64,000 bases of DNA from Myxococcota bacterium (GTDB lineage Bacteria; Myxococcota_A; UBA796; GCA-2862545). The DNA is taken from NCBI GenBank assembly GCA_039208735.1, contig JBCCQY010000007.1, positions 1-64,000 of the forward strand, given 5' to 3'. Shown one piece after another: positions 52,723 through 64,000 of the stretch (position 1 is its first letter; each line of letters opens with the position of its first letter). Below the pieces are notes generated by a model. That model searched no databases and was not told the origin of the DNA. It saw only the letters and a list, made by a program, of their open reading frames with translations. A program made the translations under genes and the position numbers.

Positions 52723-55700
52723 ATGTGGGGGTGGGTCATCTTGAGCGTGGGGTGCCGGCCATCCGTTCCCCCGAATCCCGTACTTCCCGATGCCGCCTCC
52801 GTCCGTTCCGCCAAGCTCGTGCCGCAGCTTGGCCACCGCTCGAGAGTCACGCAGCTGCTGACATCCGGTCCGTACGTCATCACGACCGATCCCGAACCCG
52901 AAGTCTTGGTGTGGCATCTCGACGACGCGGTCTTGTTGCATCGCCTGCGGCTGCACACCGACACCGTCCGCGACCTGGCCCTGTCGCCCGACGGGCGGCT
53001 GCTCGCCACCGCGAGTGACGATGGGCAAGTCGGCGTCTGGAACCTCGACGATGGGACCATGCTCCAGGTGTTCGAGCACGAGAAGGCCGTCGAGACCGTG
53101 ATCTTCGGTGCGAGAGGCAAAACCGTGATCACGGGCGCGCACGATGGGGTGGCCCGCATCTTCGATGTCGCCCAAGGCCAGCTGGTTCGCGAGCTGCCAC
53201 ATCCGGGCTGGGTCTTCGTCGATCGATTGAACGATGGGCGGTTGGTTACATCCTCCATTAGCGAGGTCCGAATCTGGGCTTCCGACTTCAGCCGGACCGA
53301 CCTTCGCCTCGCGCCATCCGACACATTTCAATCCGCCACGGTTTCGGCAGACGGTTCTCGCATCGCCATTCAGCGGAAGTCGCAGGTGACGGTCCACGAC
53401 GCCTCCGGCCGGGTTCGCGGCACCCTCGACCACAACGCCGAGGTGACCCACCTCGCGTTCGGACCTGGCCGGCGCCTCCTCACCACAAGTCTCGACGGCA
53501 CGGCTCAGGTGTGGAACACCAACACGCTCAACCCCATCACGACCTACCGCGGCCACGAAGAAGAGGTCGATCGAGCTTATTTTTCCTCGGACGGGACGCG
53601 GGTCGCGTCGGTGGGGGGGGATTACCGGGCGCACATCTGGGACGCCGAAACGGGCGAAACCCAGGCCGTGTTCGGGGGCATCGACAATTCCCTTGGCGTT
53701 CCCTTGATCGTCCATCAGGTGACCCTGCGAGAGGCCGATGACACCTTGATCACAGGCCATGCCGACGGACAGCTCTGGGCGTGGGATCTTAGGACCCGCG
53801 AGCCGGTAGGGCGGCTGCGATCTCGCGTTGACTTGGCCATGAGCGTCGATGCGTCCCCTGACGGTCGGTACCTGGTCGCGGCCCATGGGCCCAAGGCCAC
53901 CCTGTTCGACCTGCGCTTTGGGCGGGAGCATGCGGTACTGGAGGGGCACCAATCCAACATCCAACAGGTGCGCTTTGCGCCAGATGGCGCCACCGTGTTC
54001 ACCGCGGCCTCGGACAGCGGCGCGGTGGCTTGGGATGCGGCCACCGGAGAAGCCCGTGCGGCCTTTGTCGGAGAGCACCAAGCGGGGCTTCGCGACTTGG
54101 CGGTGGCGCCCGATGGTGCCTCGATTGTCACCGCGGGTGAAGATGGCTTGGCCGTGTGGTGGGACGTCGCCACACAGAAGGCCAAACGTCGCCTTGAAGG
54201 CCATACGGGTGACATTTGGGCTGTCGCCATGGCACCGGATGGCCGACGGCTCGTCACCGGCGGAGAGCACGCGGAAGTCCGGCTGTGGAATTTGGACGAA
54301 ACGCAGCCTCCGCGCCTCGTGACGGTGCCCCATCGCACGAGCCGTCCGCCCACCGTGCTTACCGCCACATTCACCCCGGACGGCGCGGAAGTGCTGATTG
54401 GAACCATCTACCGAGAGATCCTACGCCTTGACGCAAACACAGGTGACATCCTCCAAACCGTGAAGCGAGAGGGTCCCGTTTCCACGCTGAGATTCACCTC
54501 CGATGGCCGGGATCTCATTGCCGGGAACTTTAACGGCGTGACCCAGCGCCTCGATCCCAAGACCCTCACCCCTCGGGAGTCGTTTGCGCGCCTCGATAGC
54601 TTCGTGCTCGATGCCCTCGCGTGGCCAGACGCTCCGTGGGTCGTCAGTGCGGGCATGGATGGCACGGTGCGGTTCTTCGAACGGGGCGCTTCAGAGGCGC
54701 AGGCGACGCTCTTGCTGGCCGGCGGCGGATTTGCCGTCATCGATCGCGACGGGCGATTCGATGCTGAGGAAGCCGAGCAGAACGCCTTGTGGGTGATCGA
54801 TGGGATGGGCTACGCCCTCGGTCAGCTGCGCGATGAGTTCTACGATCCAGGCTTGCTTGCCAAAGTCCTTCGCCAAACCGTCACACCACGGCGTACGGTG
54901 CCTGAACTTCGCGCCATCGCTCCCCCCGCCAAGGTCACCGTCGAAGGTCCTCGACCAGACGGTCGGGTGCGACTGACCGCGGAGGACCGAGGTGGCGGCG
55001 TGGGGGAGGTGTTTGCCACGCTGAACGACACCGATGTCTCCTCGGTGGTCCAAACGACCTGTGGCCAGTTCGATGTCCCCTGTGAGGTCGACCTATCCGA
55101 ACTCCCCACGTGGGCCGCCGGCCTCGAAAACACGTTTCGTGTGCAAATGAGCAACCTGGCTGGCTCCGTCCAATCCCGGGGCCTCCTCATCACCACCAAG
55201 GCCGCGGGCCGACCTCCCCGGGACCCGCCTGATCTCTGGGTATTGGCCGTTGGATCCAGCGACTACACCGGCACCCAACTCGACTTGGCCTACCCTGCCC
55301 TCGATGGGCATCAGATCGCATCGGCGCTCCGTTTGGCAGGACTTAGCGGGTTTGGGACAGAGCGAACTCATATTCGCGTACTCACTACGGACACGACACT
55401 GCCGCTCTTCCACGACACCCCAAGCCGGGACTCGCTCGACGAGGCATTCGCCTGGCTCCAACAGGCCGACGTACTCGATACCGTGGTTGTGTTCTTCGCG
55501 GGGCATGGCGTCGCCTGGTCCGATGAGCAGTCCGACGACTACTTCTTCCTTCTCCCCAGTGCCGCTTCGCTCGAAGACGTCCGAGACCCCAACCTTCGGC
55601 AACTTCGGACGTGGTCGGGAGACGACCTCGCCGTCGCCTTGAGTCGCGTGCCGGCACGAAAGCGCGTCGTCATCCTCGATACCTGTGCCGCCGGTAAACT

Positions 55701-56379
55701 CGATCAGTCGCTCACCGTGGAACGGATGTTGTCTTCAGACGCACTTCGCGCCCACGCACGGGCGCGTCATCGGACCGGGGCGTGGGTGCTCGCGGGCGCC
55801 GCCGCCGATCAGATCAGCTACGAAGCGTCGAGGTTTGGCCAAGGTCTCCTCACCTACAGCCTTCTCGAAGCGATGAAGGGCCCAGCCCTCGACGAGGGCG
55901 ATCAGCTCTGGGTCAGCCGTTGGTTTGCCAGAGCCGAAGCCCAAGTCCCGCGGTACGCCAAGGCGATTGGTGGCGTGCAACGTCCGGTGCTTCGGCGGGG
56001 GGCCGGCGACTTTCCGCTCGGCGAACTCCCGCCAAAGGACCGATCACGCATCGTCCTGGCCGCGGTGCAGCCCGTCGTCGTACGCACCGTTGTGGTGGGG
56101 CCCGGAGGACGACCGGATCGACGGGGCATCGCAACGGCGGTGGACCGAGTACTCCGTCGTCTGGCTCCTACCCACAACTTTGTGTGGTGGGACGTCGATG
56201 ACGCGCCGGACGCCACGAGGCTGAGTGGTCAATACAAGGAGGCGCGCGACGGTCTGACCTTCGAGGGGTTTGTGAGCCGTGGGGATCGCGAACAGGCCGT
56301 TGCCTTGGGCGCACCCGATCTCGACGTGTTGGCCCAGCGTCTCGCCGAACAGGTCCACGCCTTTCTTCAAGCCGAGTAG
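52723..56379 (+). CDS. Lipoprotein with WD40 repeats and C-terminal caspase (C14) domain
   Basis: Lipobox SVGC; more than ten GH..WD repeats; FFAGHG (His) and ILDTCAAG (Cys) intact; FGQGLLTYSLL. Confidence 0.9.
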   Translation: MWGWVILSVGCRPSVPPNPVLPDAASVRSAKLVPQLGHRSRVTQLLTSGPYVITTDPEPEVLVWHLDDAVLLHRLRLHTDTVRDLALSPDGRLLATASDDGQVGVWNLDDGTMLQVFEHEKAVETVIFGARGKTVITGAHDGVARIFDVAQGQLVRELPHPGWVFVDRLNDGRLVTSSISEVRIWASDFSRTDLRLAPSDTFQSATVSADGSRIAIQRKSQVTVHDASGRVRGTLDHNAEVTHLAFGPGRRLLTTSLDGTAQVWNTNTLNPITTYRGHEEEVDRAYFSSDGTRVASVGGDYRAHIWDAETGETQAVFGGIDNSLGVPLIVHQVTLREADDTLITGHADGQLWAWDLRTREPVGRLRSRVDLAMSVDASPDGRYLVAAHGPKATLFDLRFGREHAVLEGHQSNIQQVRFAPDGATVFTAASDSGAVAWDAATGEARAAFVGEHQAGLRDLAVAPDGASIVTAGEDGLAVWWDVATQKAKRRLEGHTGDIWAVAMAPDGRRLVTGGEHAEVRLWNLDETQPPRLVTVPHRTSRPPTVLTATFTPDGAEVLIGTIYREILRLDANTGDILQTVKREGPVSTLRFTSDGRDLIAGNFNGVTQRLDPKTLTPRESFARLDSFVLDALAWPDAPWVVSAGMDGTVRFFERGASEAQATLLLAGGGFAVIDRDGRFDAEEAEQNALWVIDGMGYALGQLRDEFYDPGLLAKVLRQTVTPRRTVPELRAIAPPAKVTVEGPRPDGRVRLTAEDRGGGVGEVFATLNDTDVSSVVQTTCGQFDVPCEVDLSELPTWAAGLENTFRVQMSNLAGSVQSRGLLITTKAAGRPPRDPPDLWVLAVGSSDYTGTQLDLAYPALDGHQIASALRLAGLSGFGTERTHIRVLTTDTTLPLFHDTPSRDSLDEAFAWLQQADVLDTVVVFFAGHGVAWSDEQSDDYFFLLPSAASLEDVRDPNLRQLRTWSGDDLAVALSRVPARKRVVILDTCAAGKLDQSLTVERMLSSDALRAHARARHRTGAWVLAGAAADQISYEASRFGQGLLTYSLLEAMKGPALDEGDQLWVSRWFARAEAQVPRYAKAIGGVQRPVLRRGAGDFPLGELPPKDRSRIVLAAVQPVVVRTVVVGPGGRPDRRGIATAVDRVLRRLAPTHNFVWWDVDDAPDATRLSGQYKEARDGLTFEGFVSRGDREQAVALGAPDLDVLAQRLAEQVHAFLQAE

Positions 56380-57147
56380 TCAGGCCTCGTCAACCGGTTC
56401 GGGACGGCCCACGACGAAGAAGGCGTAGCCAACCGCTTCGGGGTGGGCCCAAAAGGCATCGATCTCTGCTTGGGCTTCGTCGAGCACCGCCACCAGGGCC
56501 TCGTCGGCTCCAGGTCGAAGGTCGTGAATCCTCGACTGTAGGGGATCGTAGTACGGCCGCCACGCGGTTTCGGGGTCCAGCACGAACAGGTCATGCAGCA
56601 CGAGACCGGCTTGAGCCACCTGCTTGCGGCGCACCTCGATTGGCTGCAAGTCAGGGTAATCCGCCCATACCGCCGCGACTTGTGTCGGCAGGGGGTCGAC
56701 CAGCTTTACCGGTTCCGTCAAGGCGATGGCTCCGCCGTTCGTGAGCAGGGTCGGCCATTCGAGCATGGCCCGCTCAAAGCCGAAGAGGTAAGCCGATCCT
56801 TCTGCCCAGATCAGGTCGGCCGGATCGGTCACTGGCGGATCGCGTAGATCGCCTCGAACGGTCGAGATGCGGTCACGAAATCCTTCCGCTGCCGCTCGTG
56901 CGTCCAGCACATCAAGGAAGGGTTGGTGGAGGTCGACTGCGGTGATGCGGGCGCTTGGCAGGAGGCGGGCCAGATCCAGCGTCGGGGTGCCGGGTCCGCA
57001 GCCAAGGTCGAGGACGCGGGGTCGGTAGGGCAGGGCGGGAATCGAGAACAGTGCGCGGGCGGTACTCTCGGAGTCGCCCGGCCCCTCGCGGAGCAGGCCT
57101 CGATGAAGCCGGAAAAAGGGGTTTTCGTTCGGTTCCCGTTCGGTCAT
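56380..57147 (-). CDS. Class I SAM-dependent methyltransferase
   Basis: REGPG, VLDLGCGPG, AVDLH, DLIWAEGSAY. Confidence 0.9.
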   Translation of the reverse strand: MTEREPNENPFFRLHRGLLREGPGDSESTARALFSIPALPYRPRVLDLGCGPGTPTLDLARLLPSARITAVDLHQPFLDVLDARAAAEGFRDRISTVRGDLRDPPVTDPADLIWAEGSAYLFGFERAMLEWPTLLTNGGAIALTEPVKLVDPLPTQVAAVWADYPDLQPIEVRRKQVAQAGLVLHDLFVLDPETAWRPYYDPLQSRIHDLRPGADEALVAVLDEAQAEIDAFWAHPEAVGYAFFVVGRPEPVDEA

Positions 57148-57255
57148 GGTCGCCTTGTAACGTCGATCTACACGTCTTCTGCGCCTGTCACCTGACCGTT
57201 GCCCACCAAGCCCGAGCGTTCCCGCCGAAGCGACAAAACCAGCCGGCCATTTCGC

Positions 57256-57374
57256 TCCCCCCTCCCCCCAAGCGAAGCGCCAGCGGTCCGCCGGAGCGCA
57301 GCGACGCCGGACGAGCTGACGGCGTCGAGCGGAGCGAGAGGAGGAGGCCGAGCTGAGCGCGGAGCGCTTAGGGG
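57256..57374. repeat. Structured intergenic palindromic element with four GCGNAGC mini-hairpin motifs
   Basis: GCGAAGC 57272, GCGCAGC 57296, GCGGAGC 57329 and 57359; central GACGCCG/CGGCGTC stem; outer CCCC..AAGCG/CGCTT.GGGG arms. Confidence 0.6.
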
Positions 57375-57416
57375 TAATGTTGCGGATGCCACCTCGCCCC
57401 CGCTAATCTGACCGGC

Positions 57417-57896
57417 ATGTCACGGCTCGCGCGCGGGAGAGGGCCGGTCTGGAGAGGGTTGGTGGCAGACACCGATAGTGATGGTCGGCGACCTGTCGAG
57501 ACGCCGCAAGGAACGGCCTATCTCGAGATTGGCGCCGATGGCAGCGTACATATTCAAGGCCCCCCAGAGGCGGTTCGATACATCAACGACCACCTTCAGC
57601 GGGCCATCGCCCAAGCTCGGGGTGACCGACGCCCGCGCAGACGCGTGTTGACCGGTCGGGTCATCAAGAACAAGATGACCAAGACCGTCGTGGTGCAGGT
57701 CACCCGTCGGGTTCGACATCGGCGCTACGGCAAGTACGTCGAACGACGTAAGACCTACATGGCCCACGACGAACACGAGGAATGCAAGGTCGACGACGTC
57801 GTCGTGATCCAAGAGTGCCGGCCTCTGTCGCGGCACAAACGGCACCGTGTCGTGTCGATCTACTCGCAGGAGCGCGGGATGGCAGGGCGTCCTTGA
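57417..57896 (+). CDS. rpsQ: Ribosomal protein S17 (uS17) homologue with N-terminal extension, outside the S10 operon
   Basis: RVLTGRVIKNKMTKTVVVQV.R...H..YGKYV.R.K.YMAHDE...CKV.D.V.IQECRPLSRHKR; start may be GTG 57462 after GGAGAGG. Confidence 0.85.
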   Translation: MSRLARGRGPVWRGLVADTDSDGRRPVETPQGTAYLEIGADGSVHIQGPPEAVRYINDHLQRAIAQARGDRRPRRRVLTGRVIKNKMTKTVVVQVTRRVRHRRYGKYVERRKTYMAHDEHEECKVDDVVVIQECRPLSRHKRHRVVSIYSQERGMAGRP

Positions 57897-57957
57897 CCGC
57901 AAACGCGCTGGCTTAACGAGTCGCCGCGCTGGCTCACAGCTGCGAAGGAGGCACTTG

Positions 57958-60900
57958 ATGATGTGGCTTGGCATGGTGACGGTCGCGACGTGCCTTGCCC
58001 AAGACCTCCCCGTGCAGCGGGCGCGCATTGTGGTCGATGTCGATCAGGCCATCGCAACGGTGACCCAAACGCACACGTTCACCAACGACCGCAGCGCCTT
58101 CATCGAAGGCACCTACGTGTTTCCCCTGCCTGAAGACGCCTCCGTAGACGGCATGGTGATGCACATCGCAGACCGCACGATCGAAGGGCGCGTCGAAGAG
58201 CGTGACACAGCCTGGCTTGCCTATCGAAATGCGGTCGCCCAAGGCCGCATTGCGACGTTGACCCAAGAATCTCGGCCTAACGTGTTTTTACAACGGGTCG
58301 GCAACATTCCCCCCGGCGCCAGCATCGATGTCACCCTGACTTTGGTGCAACCCGTCGACCAACGCAATGGCTACGCAGAGCTGGTGCTCCCGGTGGTCGT
58401 TGCCCCGCGCTTCATCCCGGCATCCGACCGACCCAACATCGAACCGGGGCCGCGGTTAGGCGACACCCCCGTCGAGACCCAGGTCTCCGTTTCGCTGACC
58501 AGCGCCACCCCGATCATCGACCTGCATTCGCCTAGCCACGCCGGGCTCACCTCCCTGGAGGCTTCCGCCACCCCTGGAGTTCCCCATCAAGCACGCTTTG
58601 AGTTGAACACGCCCGGGCAGCGAGATGTCGTTCTGCGCTGGTCAATGAGACGGCAGACTCCTACAGCCCACGTCCTTCTCCAACGGGGACCCAACGACGC
58701 CGAACATGCGCTCCTCATCGTCGATCCACCGGCGGACGTATCCCCAGCGGATCGGGTGGCCCGCGAATTGGTGTGGGTCATCGACCAATCCTGTTCGATG
58801 CGCGGCGCGCCCCTCACCTTGACCCAGCGCGCCATGCAGCAGCTCGTGGACGACCTCGATGAGCGCGACAGCGTCTGGCTCTTGCCATCCACCGCGTGGC
58901 TCGAGGGCGAGAGCGAACCGCAGGCAGTGACGCCTTGGCGTCAAACCCTGGTCCGAGGCCGCATCGCCAGCCTCGAGGCCACCGGTCCCACGCCCTTGTT
59001 TGAAGGGCTTACCCTCGCGCTCGAGCATCCCCTCGACCCACGACGAGAGCGCGCGATCATCGTGGTCAGTGACGGCCTTGTGGCGGACGACTGGTCCGTC
59101 CTACAACAGGTGGCGGATCAGCTGGGCCCCAGCCGACTGTTCAGCATTGGCGCCGGACCCTCGCCCAATCGTTTTCTGCTGGAAGAACTCGCTCGTATCG
59201 GCGGTGGAACATCGACATTCTTGCGTCAGGGTGAAGACCCTGAGGCCACGGTGGCCCGGTTCCTGCGCACGATTCAAGCGCCTGTGCTCACCGATGTGGG
59301 GGTGGACTGGGGCGACTGGGTGGTCGACGAAGTGACGCCAGACCGCTGGCCCGCGGTGTACGCGAACCAGCCCCTGCAGCTCACCGCCATCGTGCGAAAG
59401 CGAGGCACCACACCCATCACGATTCGGGGCCGTACCGTGGACGGGCCATGGAAGACCGAGGTCACCCCAACCGTGCTCGATGCAGGCCGTAGCATCCCTT
59501 CAACCTGGGCCCGGCAGCGCATCCGCGAACTCGATCGGGACCAACTGTGGCGCGACGTTCCCGGCGCCGTCAAGCGCATCATCGACCTGTCGCTGACCTA
59601 CCAGGTGTCGAGCCGCTACACCGCATTTGTGGCGATCGACGACCGCCCGGTCCGGGACCCCACCGACGCAATCTTTCGCGCCGAGCAACGGGCGGCACCT
59701 CCTGCAGACGCCACCTTCTTTGCCCCAGTGGTCGAAGCCAGCACCGCGTCACTCGAGTCCGCCTCCAGGGTTGTGGCGGCGTTCACAAGCCGCCGTACCA
59801 TCCCGGCCGGGCGATCCTACCAAACCGCTGTTTCCACCATTTACTTCCCCCTCTACCGCCGAGCATCGTTCGTCGGTCATCAATCGATCCTCTGGCCGTT
59901 CGACCCCGCCCTGGTGCAGCGGTACGGAGCGACCAACAATCGCTTCATCGAGCTTCGCCACGAAGAAGGCCTCGCAACCCGGACCGACCTGGGCGTTCGC
60001 GAGACCATGGGCGCCGCGCGAGGGCCCGTGGTGAGGGATGCCGTATGGGCCGAAGGACGGGCTCGGCGCATCGAGACCAACGCGGGAGATCGAAGCTACC
60101 TAGGGCATCGTCTCGTGATAGGCGCCTCCGCGCAGCCCAATTCAAGCCATCAGCTGATGGCTCGAGGATTGGTGGATCGCAGCACCATCAACGATGCGTT
60201 TGGGCGCTCCGACCAGGCCGAGCTGGCGCTGTCCGGCCAGTGGAAGGCGTTTCCCTCGCCCAACTTCGCGGTTGAGCTTCAAACGGAAGGGCGACGGGTA
60301 GGGATTGGCGACGATCGATTCGACCGTTTGGTGGCCCAAGTCATGCTACGCCAGGTCATTTCGAAACACCGTTGGTGGGCCGAACTGCTCGCCGACCGCG
60401 TGCGGTGGCAGCGCCCGGATGGGTTCCGAACCCGGGGCCTTCCTCAGATCGCAGCGACCAACCGCATCTTCTTCCGCGGCGCGTATCGCTACCGCTTCGA
60501 TGAGCATTGGCTCATCCGCGCGTGGCTCGAGACGCACGGGTTCTTAGGCCGAGTATGGCCCACCCCGGCCCTCTGGATCGAATGGGAGCCGTCGGATTGG
60601 CTGACGGTGACCGGAGCCGCGGGTCGCCATCTCACGCACGTGGGCCAAGCAGGGTTTCTCAATGGTCAACCCGCCATTCTCAACGAAGCTCTGGCATCGG
60701 TGGAACTTCGCGTAAACTACGCCTTGGAGGCCAACTTCCAAGCCAGTGTCCGGTCCCGTCAAAACGTTCCGCAGGTTGACGGCTCCTCCGTAGACCGCGA
60801 TGTGGCACGGCTCGCCTTCGCGGGCCGGGCCGAACTCCACCCTCTGGAACTCGAAGTCACCGCGACCCAGCAATGGTTGCTGACCGATGTCCCCGGACCG

Positions 60901-61281
60901 GTCTACAGCGATGGCACGTTGGCCGGCTTTGCCCATCGACTCGAGGGGCACATCGCGTGGACGTCCAACCGCCGCAACCCCCTGACGACCGAATTTCTCG
61001 CGGGAGTCTTCGCTCAGCCCCTTGGAAACGTGCTTCCCGATCCCACCCTCCGTAACGGACCCAACATTCCGCGGTGGAGGCTTGGCAACCGTTGGACGTG
61101 GACCCGAACCAGCCACCAGGCCATCCCCTTCGAGATCTCGGTCGAAGCATCATGGACCGAGCTGCTCGGACCCGCCTCTCTCGACGATGTGCTTCGGTCC
61201 GGCCTGCAAGGTCCCCAGGTTGCGCTACCCGCGTTCACCGGTCTGCGCCTTGGGGGAACCGTGGCACTGAAATTCGAGTGA
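57958..61281 (+). CDS. Exported VIT plus vWA protein with C-terminal beta-barrel-like region
   Basis: VIT: EGTYVFPLP, IEGRVEE, RPNVF..VGNIPPG; MIDAS DQSCS, T, SDG; S.YTAFVAID; then PAGRSYQ and an aromatic beta-rich tail ending LKFE; AGGAGG RBS. Confidence 0.82.
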   Translation: MMWLGMVTVATCLAQDLPVQRARIVVDVDQAIATVTQTHTFTNDRSAFIEGTYVFPLPEDASVDGMVMHIADRTIEGRVEERDTAWLAYRNAVAQGRIATLTQESRPNVFLQRVGNIPPGASIDVTLTLVQPVDQRNGYAELVLPVVVAPRFIPASDRPNIEPGPRLGDTPVETQVSVSLTSATPIIDLHSPSHAGLTSLEASATPGVPHQARFELNTPGQRDVVLRWSMRRQTPTAHVLLQRGPNDAEHALLIVDPPADVSPADRVARELVWVIDQSCSMRGAPLTLTQRAMQQLVDDLDERDSVWLLPSTAWLEGESEPQAVTPWRQTLVRGRIASLEATGPTPLFEGLTLALEHPLDPRRERAIIVVSDGLVADDWSVLQQVADQLGPSRLFSIGAGPSPNRFLLEELARIGGGTSTFLRQGEDPEATVARFLRTIQAPVLTDVGVDWGDWVVDEVTPDRWPAVYANQPLQLTAIVRKRGTTPITIRGRTVDGPWKTEVTPTVLDAGRSIPSTWARQRIRELDRDQLWRDVPGAVKRIIDLSLTYQVSSRYTAFVAIDDRPVRDPTDAIFRAEQRAAPPADATFFAPVVEASTASLESASRVVAAFTSRRTIPAGRSYQTAVSTIYFPLYRRASFVGHQSILWPFDPALVQRYGATNNRFIELRHEEGLATRTDLGVRETMGAARGPVVRDAVWAEGRARRIETNAGDRSYLGHRLVIGASAQPNSSHQLMARGLVDRSTINDAFGRSDQAELALSGQWKAFPSPNFAVELQTEGRRVGIGDDRFDRLVAQVMLRQVISKHRWWAELLADRVRWQRPDGFRTRGLPQIAATNRIFFRGAYRYRFDEHWLIRAWLETHGFLGRVWPTPALWIEWEPSDWLTVTGAAGRHLTHVGQAGFLNGQPAILNEALASVELRVNYALEANFQASVRSRQNVPQVDGSSVDRDVARLAFAGRAELHPLELEVTATQQWLLTDVPGPVYSDGTLAGFAHRLEGHIAWTSNRRNPLTTEFLAGVFAQPLGNVLPDPTLRNGPNIPRWRLGNRWTWTRTSHQAIPFEISVEASWTELLGPASLDDVLRSGLQGPQVALPAFTGLRLGGTVALKFE

Positions 61282-62509: not shown

Positions 62510-63199
62510 GTGCCACAACCACCGAATCCGAAGGCCCCCCACAACCCACGGAACCGGCTTTCCCTCAATGATCTGCGCGCGGCGGCAAGGCTCGTCAACG
62601 CAGCTTTGGTGGGAATCGTAGGATTCTCTGGTTCGTGGGCGCACAACGCACGCAAGGACGCGAAGCAGGTTGCAAGAAATGCCCTCACCGGACTCTTTCG
62701 TCGGCAAAGCAACGCCGGACAGCCCCCTGCCGACCTCTGGTGCGTGAGCGGGGCCACCAATTTTGGGGTACCTGCCCTCGCCTATGAAGTTTCAACCGAA
62801 CTCCACATTCCCCGGATCGGACTCACGGCAAGGGAAGCCCTCCGCTACAAACTTGCGGAACTCGATGTCCTCACGCTGGTCGGGCGGCGGTTTGGCGATG
62901 AATCACGCGCCTTCGTCGACCTTTGCGATGTGTTTTGGATGATCGGCGGAGGGTCGCAGTCCGAGGCCGAGATGCGGCTTGCGGCGAAACGTGGCAAGCC
63001 CATCGTCGTGGTGCAGGGCTTAGGGGGTCGGGCGGACCACATGACGCTGACGGAGCTTCCTACCGCACAGTTCCTCGATTGCGATACCCTCGAGGTCAGG
63101 TCGCCGGATCGTGATCGAAAAACCTATCTTCGGGTCGCAGGGCAAGCTGCACGAGCCCTCCCTCACACCGCACCAGCCACGTCGGGACCCGTTTGTTGA
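62510..63199 (+). CDS. SLOG-superfamily nucleotide-binding protein
   Basis: VGIVGFSG, VSGATNFGVPALAY, GDES, MIGGG.QS..E, GKPIVVVQGLGGRAD; GGAGG RBS. Confidence 0.72.
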   Translation: MPQPPNPKAPHNPRNRLSLNDLRAAARLVNAALVGIVGFSGSWAHNARKDAKQVARNALTGLFRRQSNAGQPPADLWCVSGATNFGVPALAYEVSTELHIPRIGLTAREALRYKLAELDVLTLVGRRFGDESRAFVDLCDVFWMIGGGSQSEAEMRLAAKRGKPIVVVQGLGGRADHMTLTELPTAQFLDCDTLEVRSPDRDRKTYLRVAGQAARALPHTAPATSGPVC

Positions 63200-64000
63200 C
63201 GAGTTCGGCATACAACCTGGTGCGTTTTTGGGGCCACAGCGAATCCAGTCTCCCTTGCTGGTTTGGTAGGTTCCAAACGCGTTCGGCCAACGCCATCCAA
63301 ATCACGGGTCGGCCCGTTCCTGCGGTGAGGCGCCCCAGCTGCCGAAGGATGTCATGCGACCGCTGATACAGACGCACCGGACTACGCCCCTCGATTCGGA
63401 TTTCGGTCTCGTCGTGGTGGCAGTGGACCTCGATGGGAGGCACCTCGGTGCGGGTCCCCGACATGCTCGCAGCCACTCGCGACCGGAGCATCAGGGTGAC
63501 GTTGCGTCCATCCAGGACCACGGGCTCGCCAGGCTCCAGCTCCACGACGGGTCCCCCGGGTTCGCGCGCGTACCAAACGCCTTCCGCACCCCAGACGGCC
63601 GGCCAATCCGCCAGGTCTCCCGGCTGCAGTTCCCCATCCGCATCCAAATGCCACGCCAGGTGGTCCATCGGATGCTCCGGACCCTCATCGACCTTCAGCG
63701 TCGGCACCAGATCGGGAAGGCACAACTCGACCACGCGCAGCGCCACCCCAGGCGCAAACTCAATCCGCATGCCGCGGATTAGCTTGACGTCATCGCGTCG
63801 GGTTCCATCGACCCACACCCGACCTCGGTAGGCCAACAACCAAAGCGCCCCCCCTCGCAAGCCAACCCCCGCGTGGGCCACCGAAATCGCGGGGTCCCTT
63901 AGCTGAAGGTCGGCGTACGGACCTCGTCCTACGACCGCCCCCAAACCCAGGGGCTGAATCTCACCGTCCGGCCCCTCGAAGGTCACACCGATGGACGGCG
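63096..64000 (-). CDS. FHA-domain protein with possible C-terminal HTH (5' end runs off the window)
   Basis: VVGRG..ADLQL.DP.IS.AHA FHA motif; frame open to the window edge. Confidence 0.75.
   Translation of the reverse strand, partial: PSIGVTFEGPDGEIQPLGLGAVVGRGPYADLQLRDPAISVAHAGVGLRGGALWLLAYRGRVWVDGTRRDDVKLIRGMRIEFAPGVALRVVELCLPDLVPTLKVDEGPEHPMDHLAWHLDADGELQPGDLADWPAVWGAEGVWYAREPGGPVVELEPGEPVVLDGRNVTLMLRSRVAASMSGTRTEVPPIEVHCHHDETEIRIEGRSPVRLYQRSHDILRQLGRLTAGTGRPVIWMALAERVWNLPNQQGRLDSLWPQKRTRLYAELVNKRVPTWLVRCEGGLVQLALRPEDRFFDHDPAT

Follow-up and report, generated by a model that had tools for sequence, protein, structure and literature searches.

Introduction

Ribosomal protein uS17, the product of rpsQ, is a primary binder of the 5′ domain of 16S rRNA and stabilises an assembly intermediate, according to the available part of PMC7356742, and the available parts of PMC11711686 and PMC11764897 place it facing h21 during translocation. 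In the accessible portion of the census of Yutin et al. 2012, the highly diverged paralogues of ribosomal proteins are zinc-motif proteins, and its supplementary file 3 gives S17 as duplicated in 3 of 995 genomes (PMC3353972). Additional sequence on uS17 is known from M. smegmatis, in which an N-terminal extension contacts h7 and h9 on the ribosome (PMC5876184, accessible text); in a mycobacterial 70S structure, the alignment of chain 5v93_q (135 aa) begins only at residue 53.

We analysed a stretch of 64,000 nucleotides of a Myxococcota genome (hereafter the window, from contig C7 of genome G000). An open reading frame at 57417-57896 on the forward strand encodes 159 aa from ATG, and its C-terminal part is a uS17 domain. 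The comparisons described below suggest that the gene is an old second copy of rpsQ that acquired a small domain at its N-terminus.

A second rpsQ outside the ribosomal gene cluster

Two matches to PF00366 were found in G000. The normal rpsQ (86 aa) is located between rpmC and rplN in a str-S10-spc-alpha cluster on contig C117, whose gene names were assigned from sequence and gene order; it occupies the position expected in the S10 operon, and the window copy stands outside that position. This canonical rpsQ confirms the second copy claimed in the original prediction and excludes the simple relocation of an only rpsQ. The two proteins share 43 of 69 core residues (62%), and synonymous substitution between their genes is almost saturated (pS 0.71), which suggests that the copy is old. 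Among the 25 proteins of the C117 cluster (24 ribosomal proteins and RpoA), only S17 has a second match in the genome (E <= 1e-4), and a block duplication is therefore not the source.

Two further genes of the ribosomal set are located elsewhere in this genome. rplC (L3) is absent between rpsJ and rplD of the C117 cluster and lies alone at C32:7129-7401 (L090), preceded by a gene for a protein of ~230-270 aa and followed by a long gene, which we take to encode an acyl-CoA ligase. The same arrangement was present in 5/5 genomes of the family checked (L092-L096), and the relocation of rplC thus appears to be old. rpsN (S14), presumably of the long, zinc-free type, was also found outside the spc cluster, at C128:1-270 (L091); at the contig end, its first 149 bases lie in inverted orientation and are bounded by short inverted repeats, which is probably an assembly artefact.

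The occurrence of duplicated S17 was surveyed in two overlapping genome samples, in which many genomes are incomplete MAGs. An S17 match was present in 138 of 182 genomes of the class, and only G000 had two; in the phylum sample (386 genomes with a match out of 401), two matches were found in G000 and G343. The second match of G343 was rejected as a true copy, since it comes from two contig ends that overlap by 114 identical bp. A true second S17 copy is accordingly present in 1 of the 386 phylum genomes with a match, incomplete MAGs included. A search of the full protein against 5.8 billion proteins returned only itself and 25 plain S17s (88-105 aa) and no other fusion, a metagenome scan for the fusion gave 8 loci that all matched the S17 part only, and neither a bacterial S17 paralogue nor a fusion was found in the open-access papers searched. 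The fusion is known from one genome and one partial strain fragment.

In the phylogenetic tree, the window S17 was placed outside the order on a long branch (0.79 vs a median end branch of 0.16). Placing it in a clade with the genus cost 0.02 log-likelihood units and was not rejected (p-AU 0.48), and the normal S17s nearest to it were those of G002, G003, and G010 (68-70%). The tree is thus compatible with an origin of the copy within or near the genus, and such an origin is likely because the fusion partner, described below, is restricted to the genus.

Start site and predicted product

Public gene callers disagree on the start of the gene: NCBI gives 144 aa, and Logan gives 159 aa from the upstream ATG (P0033). 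The 15 in-frame codons after this ATG (57417-57461) have a coding log-odds of -0.347, which is in the range of off-frame windows (-0.84 to -0.10), and the next 57 codons, which make up the extension, have a value of 0.133, within the 5-95% range of gene windows (0.02-0.36). A GGAG Shine-Dalgarno-like motif is located at 57451-57454 (+), 7 nt upstream of a GTG at 57462. Based on the codon scores and the position of this motif, the likely start is GTG 57462, the first 15 codons are probably untranslated, and the probable product is a protein of 144 aa (P0001; 57462-57896, +). On the forward strand, this product comprises a predicted N-terminal add-on domain of 57 aa (57462-57632), recognised by homology to stand-alone genes and a predicted fold and having the motif D-G/R-S/T-x-H-I/L-Q-G; the uS17 domain, delimited by profiles and alignment (57633-57857; Pfam match 57654-57854); and a C-terminal tail of 12 residues (57858-57893), which in the alignment is longer than that of the genome's normal S17.

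GTG and TTG codons are also present just ahead of the S17 core, at ~57647-57652, from which a plain S17 of ~82 aa could be made, the extension then not being translated together with S17. On reading the sequence, no Shine-Dalgarno-like motif was suitably spaced from these codons, and the frame of the extension is free of stops, coding-like, homologous to real small genes, and preceded by its own GGAG at 7 nt. Such an internal start is therefore considered very improbable, and an untranslated extension appears unlikely in view of its coding-like frame and its homology to small genes.

Conservation of and selection on the S17 half

The original prediction had identified the C-terminal part as uS17, and the profile searches agree. 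PF00366 matched residues 80-146 (E 1.2e-28; 99.4 bits vs a cut-off of 25.9), and the scores with TIGR03635, the bacterial uS17 equivalog (100 bits vs 88.7), and PRK05610 (100.9 bits vs 74) also exceeded their cut-offs. Of the 31 columns that are conserved in at least 90% of 30 normal S17s from the order, the protein keeps 27. The changed columns are V>I83, S>K84, N>E121, and W>H143 in the 159-aa numbering, and a further change, D>T88, affects a less strictly conserved column. The positions of 84 and 121 are S and N, respectively, in 30/30 normal copies, and that of 143 is W in 28 and F in 2, with F in the genome's own normal copy. The core has a net charge of +11, vs +4 to +11 in normal S17s. 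Three odd motifs had been pointed out previously; KRH in place of KRW is indeed unusual, the third residue being W or F in 30/30 normal copies, whereas HRRY and KVDD turned out to be ordinary. Since HRRY occurs in the normal S17s of G002 and G003 of the same genus and KVDD in those of G002 and G013, the two motifs are not diagnostic in the genus and family.

A contig from another sample of the same study (X5; a single contig of depth 3.8 from a related strain) spans 57609-57841, including the junction between the extension and S17, so that the extension is represented by no more than its last 8 codons. The contig differs from the window at 10 sites, which are all third positions and all synonymous; given 57.7 synonymous and 173.3 non-synonymous sites, neutrality would produce this pattern with a probability of ~1e-6. 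Sequencing error is an unlikely source because errors would hit more than silent sites. Of the 12 listed coding differences between X5 and the adjacent VIT gene, 6 change a residue (Fisher p 0.015); one more listed site was dropped as it is located before the gene start. In comparisons of the window S17 with six normal S17s, dN was 0.26-0.35 vs a near-saturated dS of 1.3-2.3. The synonymous nature of all 10 strain differences indicates, at the level of sequence, that the S17 half is under purifying selection, and this apparent selection supports a function for the second copy. The codon bias of the window gene is 0.699, a ribosome-like value that is matched by 14.6% of 1709 background windows.

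Locus and integrity of the assembly

As had been noted in the original prediction, no ribosomal genes flank the fusion gene. Its divergent neighbour upstream encodes a class I SAM methyltransferase (56380-57147, -), and a VIT-vWA protein gene (57958-61281, +) begins 61 nt downstream; both were assigned by domain matches, and both have homologues in the same genus. No S17 frame was seen beside the methyltransferase orthologues in G001, G003, and G004. Neither a sigma-70-like promoter nor a terminator was found within 57000-58100, and since no terminator-like site separates them, the fusion gene and the VIT-vWA gene are possibly co-transcribed. The region upstream of the fusion gene contains a repeat of ~100 bp rich in GCG(A/C/G)AGCG (57265-57371), which was detected by blastn and marked by raised depth and loose ends. 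Copies 84-91% identical to it, in both orientations, were found at C146 7667-7985 (three) and C157 7606-8314 (three), which suggests a REP- or MITE-like element. The repeat and the upstream region had no Rfam match, and the leader and upstream RNA was predicted to fold no better than shuffles (z 0.40).

The possibility was considered that the gene is an artefact, namely an assembly chimera, bin contamination, or a decaying pseudogene. The contamination of the bin is 6.15%, which leaves some room for this explanation. In run X1, a contig of 7253 bases covers 55500-59275 at an even depth and is identical to the window there; as the genome itself may derive from X1, the run is not independent, and this contig tests the assembly only. 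Runs X2 and X3 had no coverage of the gene, which carries no weight either way. On this read-derived contig without a break, an assembly chimera is unlikely, and the X5 contig crosses the junction in a different sample. Besides, C7 is the 5th closest of 173 contigs to the tetranucleotide mean of the genome, its genes beside the fusion have same-genus homologues, rpsQ alone of the 25 C117 cluster genes has a second match, and the strain differences are silent in 10/10 cases. Taken together, we regard an artefact as highly improbable.

Other genes in the window include one for a WD40 beta-propeller protein of 1218 aa (52723-56379, +), whose C-terminal part is presumably a caspase-type domain. 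A gene for a SLOG-like protein (62510-63199, +; LSDAT_prok, E 6e-6) is convergent with that for a weakly matching FHA-domain protein (63096-63986, -; E 0.0015).

The N-terminal extension and its stand-alone relatives

When the extension was used as a query against 154 genomes of the order, 19 genomes had a match at E <= 0.05, most of which were noise. From the 22 non-self matches at this threshold, 13 were inspected and 3 were kept. The kept homologues are stand-alone ORFs of 47, 47, and 66 aa, each complete, with 36-40% identity to the extension, predicted to encode small basic proteins (L034:4148-4291, -; L069:3953-4132, +; L068:3878-4147, +). All are from the same genus, two in G001 and one in G003; both G001 genes have Shine-Dalgarno-like motifs and appear in public collections as predicted proteins (P0031 and P0032). 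When a profile built from the three genes was run against the 164,740 frames of G000, the extension scored E 8e-10 and the next match 0.31; as its members were chosen by their likeness to the extension, this test is not fully independent. Short matches within long unrelated ORFs (L070-L072) were rejected. The profile had matches in 4 of the 182 genomes of the class; that in the fourth (G046, E 1e-4 to 8e-4) was rejected because it lies in a long frame that overlaps other ORFs or runs opposite to them. Against 1.84 billion representatives, the extension gave 4 matches, all through repeated short stretches, and the three of these sequences that were inspected were rejected. With an alignment of the extension and the three homologues (A1), only P0031 and P0032 were found among short proteins, and a weak search of longer proteins returned only the fusion protein itself.

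No free copy of the small gene was found in G000. The stand-alone genes adjoin a MerR regulator, a PCMT methyltransferase, and a TIR-domain gene, and no neighbour is common to the three or to them and the window. On the basis of these sequence relationships, the extension is judged to be a homologue of a small genus-restricted gene, behind which the S17 copy became fused in frame.

AlphaFold2 with the four-sequence alignment predicted strands at residues 9-14, 17-23, and 29-32 and a helix at 35-54 (pLDDT 80.6); the full protein, modelled from its sequence alone, gave a poor result (pLDDT 47.7). The extension had been described as a beta-beta-alpha unit of 55-70 aa, and an in-frame extension of 57 aa agrees with this, whereas the prediction has three strands ahead of the helix, not two. 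Its proposed likeness to KH and NolW domains was not significant, with no Pfam match and a best structural Z of 3.5, and may serve as a lead but does not assign the domain to either family. Pfam KH gave no match at E <= 1 with the full protein or at E <= 10 with the four members of A1, and Pfam secretin N/NolW gave none to the extension or the A1 members. The small-protein family has no match in Pfam and, with the extension and P0031 as queries, no usable match by features in the ESM Atlas, and Foldseek of the extension model against PDB and BFVD returned nothing at E <= 0.001. KH and secretin-N pieces were the most frequent among the top structural neighbours, where a Z of at most 3.5 reflects a common arrangement. 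The KH neighbours had Z 2.6-3.5, the best being 3.5 over 41-52 residues and tied with unrelated folds, and the secretin-like neighbours EscC, GspD, PilQ, and HofQ had Z 3.0-3.4, with an Atlas TM of 0.53, below the Atlas threshold. The RNA-binding half of a KH domain is a strand-helix-GxxG-helix unit; A1 contains no GxxG.

The codon adaptation of the extension is 0.496, with 92% of background windows being higher, and the fused domain has a near-neutral pI of 5.5 vs 10-11.6 for the basic free homologues. These features would suit a backup S17 with a passenger, in which selection, seen here for the S17 half and linker only, acts on an equivalent S17 of use for dosage or under certain conditions, and the extension is tolerated as a supplier of promoter and start. 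The zinc-related paralogues of L31 and L36 are functionally equivalent replacements in the available text of PMC7873864. However, the extension retains the family motif and a confident predicted fold, relatives manage with a single copy, and changes at invariant residues are unexpected for a plain backup. We therefore consider a mere backup quite unlikely.

Possible roles of the fusion protein

We tentatively favour, at slightly less than even confidence, the reading that the second copy is an alternative uS17, which would bind 16S rRNA and bring an add-on domain with it. An S17 half above the equivalog cut-off, with 27/31 conserved columns, a basic core, and only synonymous strain differences, is consistent with this reading. 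So are the low dN relative to dS in comparison with normal S17s, the primary binding of S17 to the 5′ domain, and the mycobacterial cases, in which ribosome-bound uS17 tolerates an N-terminal addition. On the other side, S>K and N>E at invariant positions, W/F>H, and the long branch are what would be expected after a change of function, and the gene lacks a ribosomal-operon context.

These last features could instead indicate that the OB-fold of S17 was co-opted to provide the small domain with an RNA-binding module, giving a regulator that acts outside the ribosome on another RNA, which might be an mRNA, an sRNA, or the repeat nearby. The detachment of the gene from ribosomal genes and the many KH domains among the weak nearest structural neighbours of the extension would fit such a role, and since the genome has no free small gene, the fusion may now carry the role of that gene. 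This extraribosomal RNA binder is the main rival, and we consider it possible though doubtful: the 27/31 columns kept are more than a new target obviously requires, the KH likeness is at noise level, with the strand-helix-GxxG-helix half missing from the extension, no target RNA was found, and the upstream region has no fold beyond that of shuffled sequences.

For the alternative uS17, the following course may be proposed. An old duplication of rpsQ in the genus, or arrival of a copy from a close relative, would have been followed by the joining of the copy in frame to a resident small gene. The S17 half would still bind the S17 site of the 16S rRNA 5′ domain, the simplest reading given that the conservation of the S17 core persists, and the fusion would compete with normal uS17 in 30S assembly whenever its separate gene is expressed. 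In a share of the small subunits, the 57-aa domain would then sit on the outside of the 30S body, where it could provide a docking surface or modify assembly locally. The fused domain is near-neutral and the free homologues are basic, which would fit a surface-exposed role of the extension rather than a second grip on RNA. The broader idea that duplication turned a non-zinc core ribosomal protein into a carrier, by which a newly recruited folded domain specific to the lineage is attached to the 30S, is, in our estimation, unlikely; if true, it would represent a specialised ribosome that a bacterium obtained through gene fusion, and would show in a living organism how ribosomes gain protein domains.

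Comparison with known systems

The reach of this case is limited to one uncultured species and a putative function. As judged from the available part of PMC3353972, divergent bacterial ribosomal protein paralogues are mostly zinc-ribbon swaps, and duplication of S17 is very rare. Against this background, an S17 paralogue that appears to be selected, together with a recruited domain that has living free-standing relatives, provides a small, testable case of ribosome heterogeneity or co-option.

The window protein resembles bacterial uS17 (rpsQ; PF00366, TIGR03635, PRK05610) in that its domain passes all three cut-offs and retains most conserved residues and the basic charge. It differs in its location outside the S10/spc cluster, its 62% core identity to the resident copy, its folded N-terminal domain (as predicted), and its substitutions at invariant positions. 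Like the C+/C- paralogues of L31, L33, L36, S14, and S18, as presented in the accessible text of PMC3353972 and PMC7873864, it is a diverged second copy off the main operon that could swap in; unlike those zinc-ribbon proteins under Zur control, it involves no loss of a zinc ribbon, and a fused domain is not part of the scheme in those portions of the two papers. The C117 S17 contains a single Cys and lacks a CxxC pair, so the zinc ribbon that defines the parent of a C-type paralogue is absent from it; in the window copy there are more His and two Cys, which lie apart.

In its most frequent top structural neighbours, the extension resembles KH type I (the C-terminal strand-strand-helix part) and secretin N/NolW domains; in contrast to a member of either family, it reaches only Z <= 3.5, has no Pfam or Foldseek match, and lacks the GxxG half. 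A parallel to additional sequence on a ribosome-bound protein is mycobacterial uS17 (PMC5876184, in the accessible part, and 5v93_q), in which the extra N-terminal sequence reaches ~50 aa. There, however, the extension is part of the normal S17, whereas here a recruited domain with free homologues appears to be carried by a second copy.
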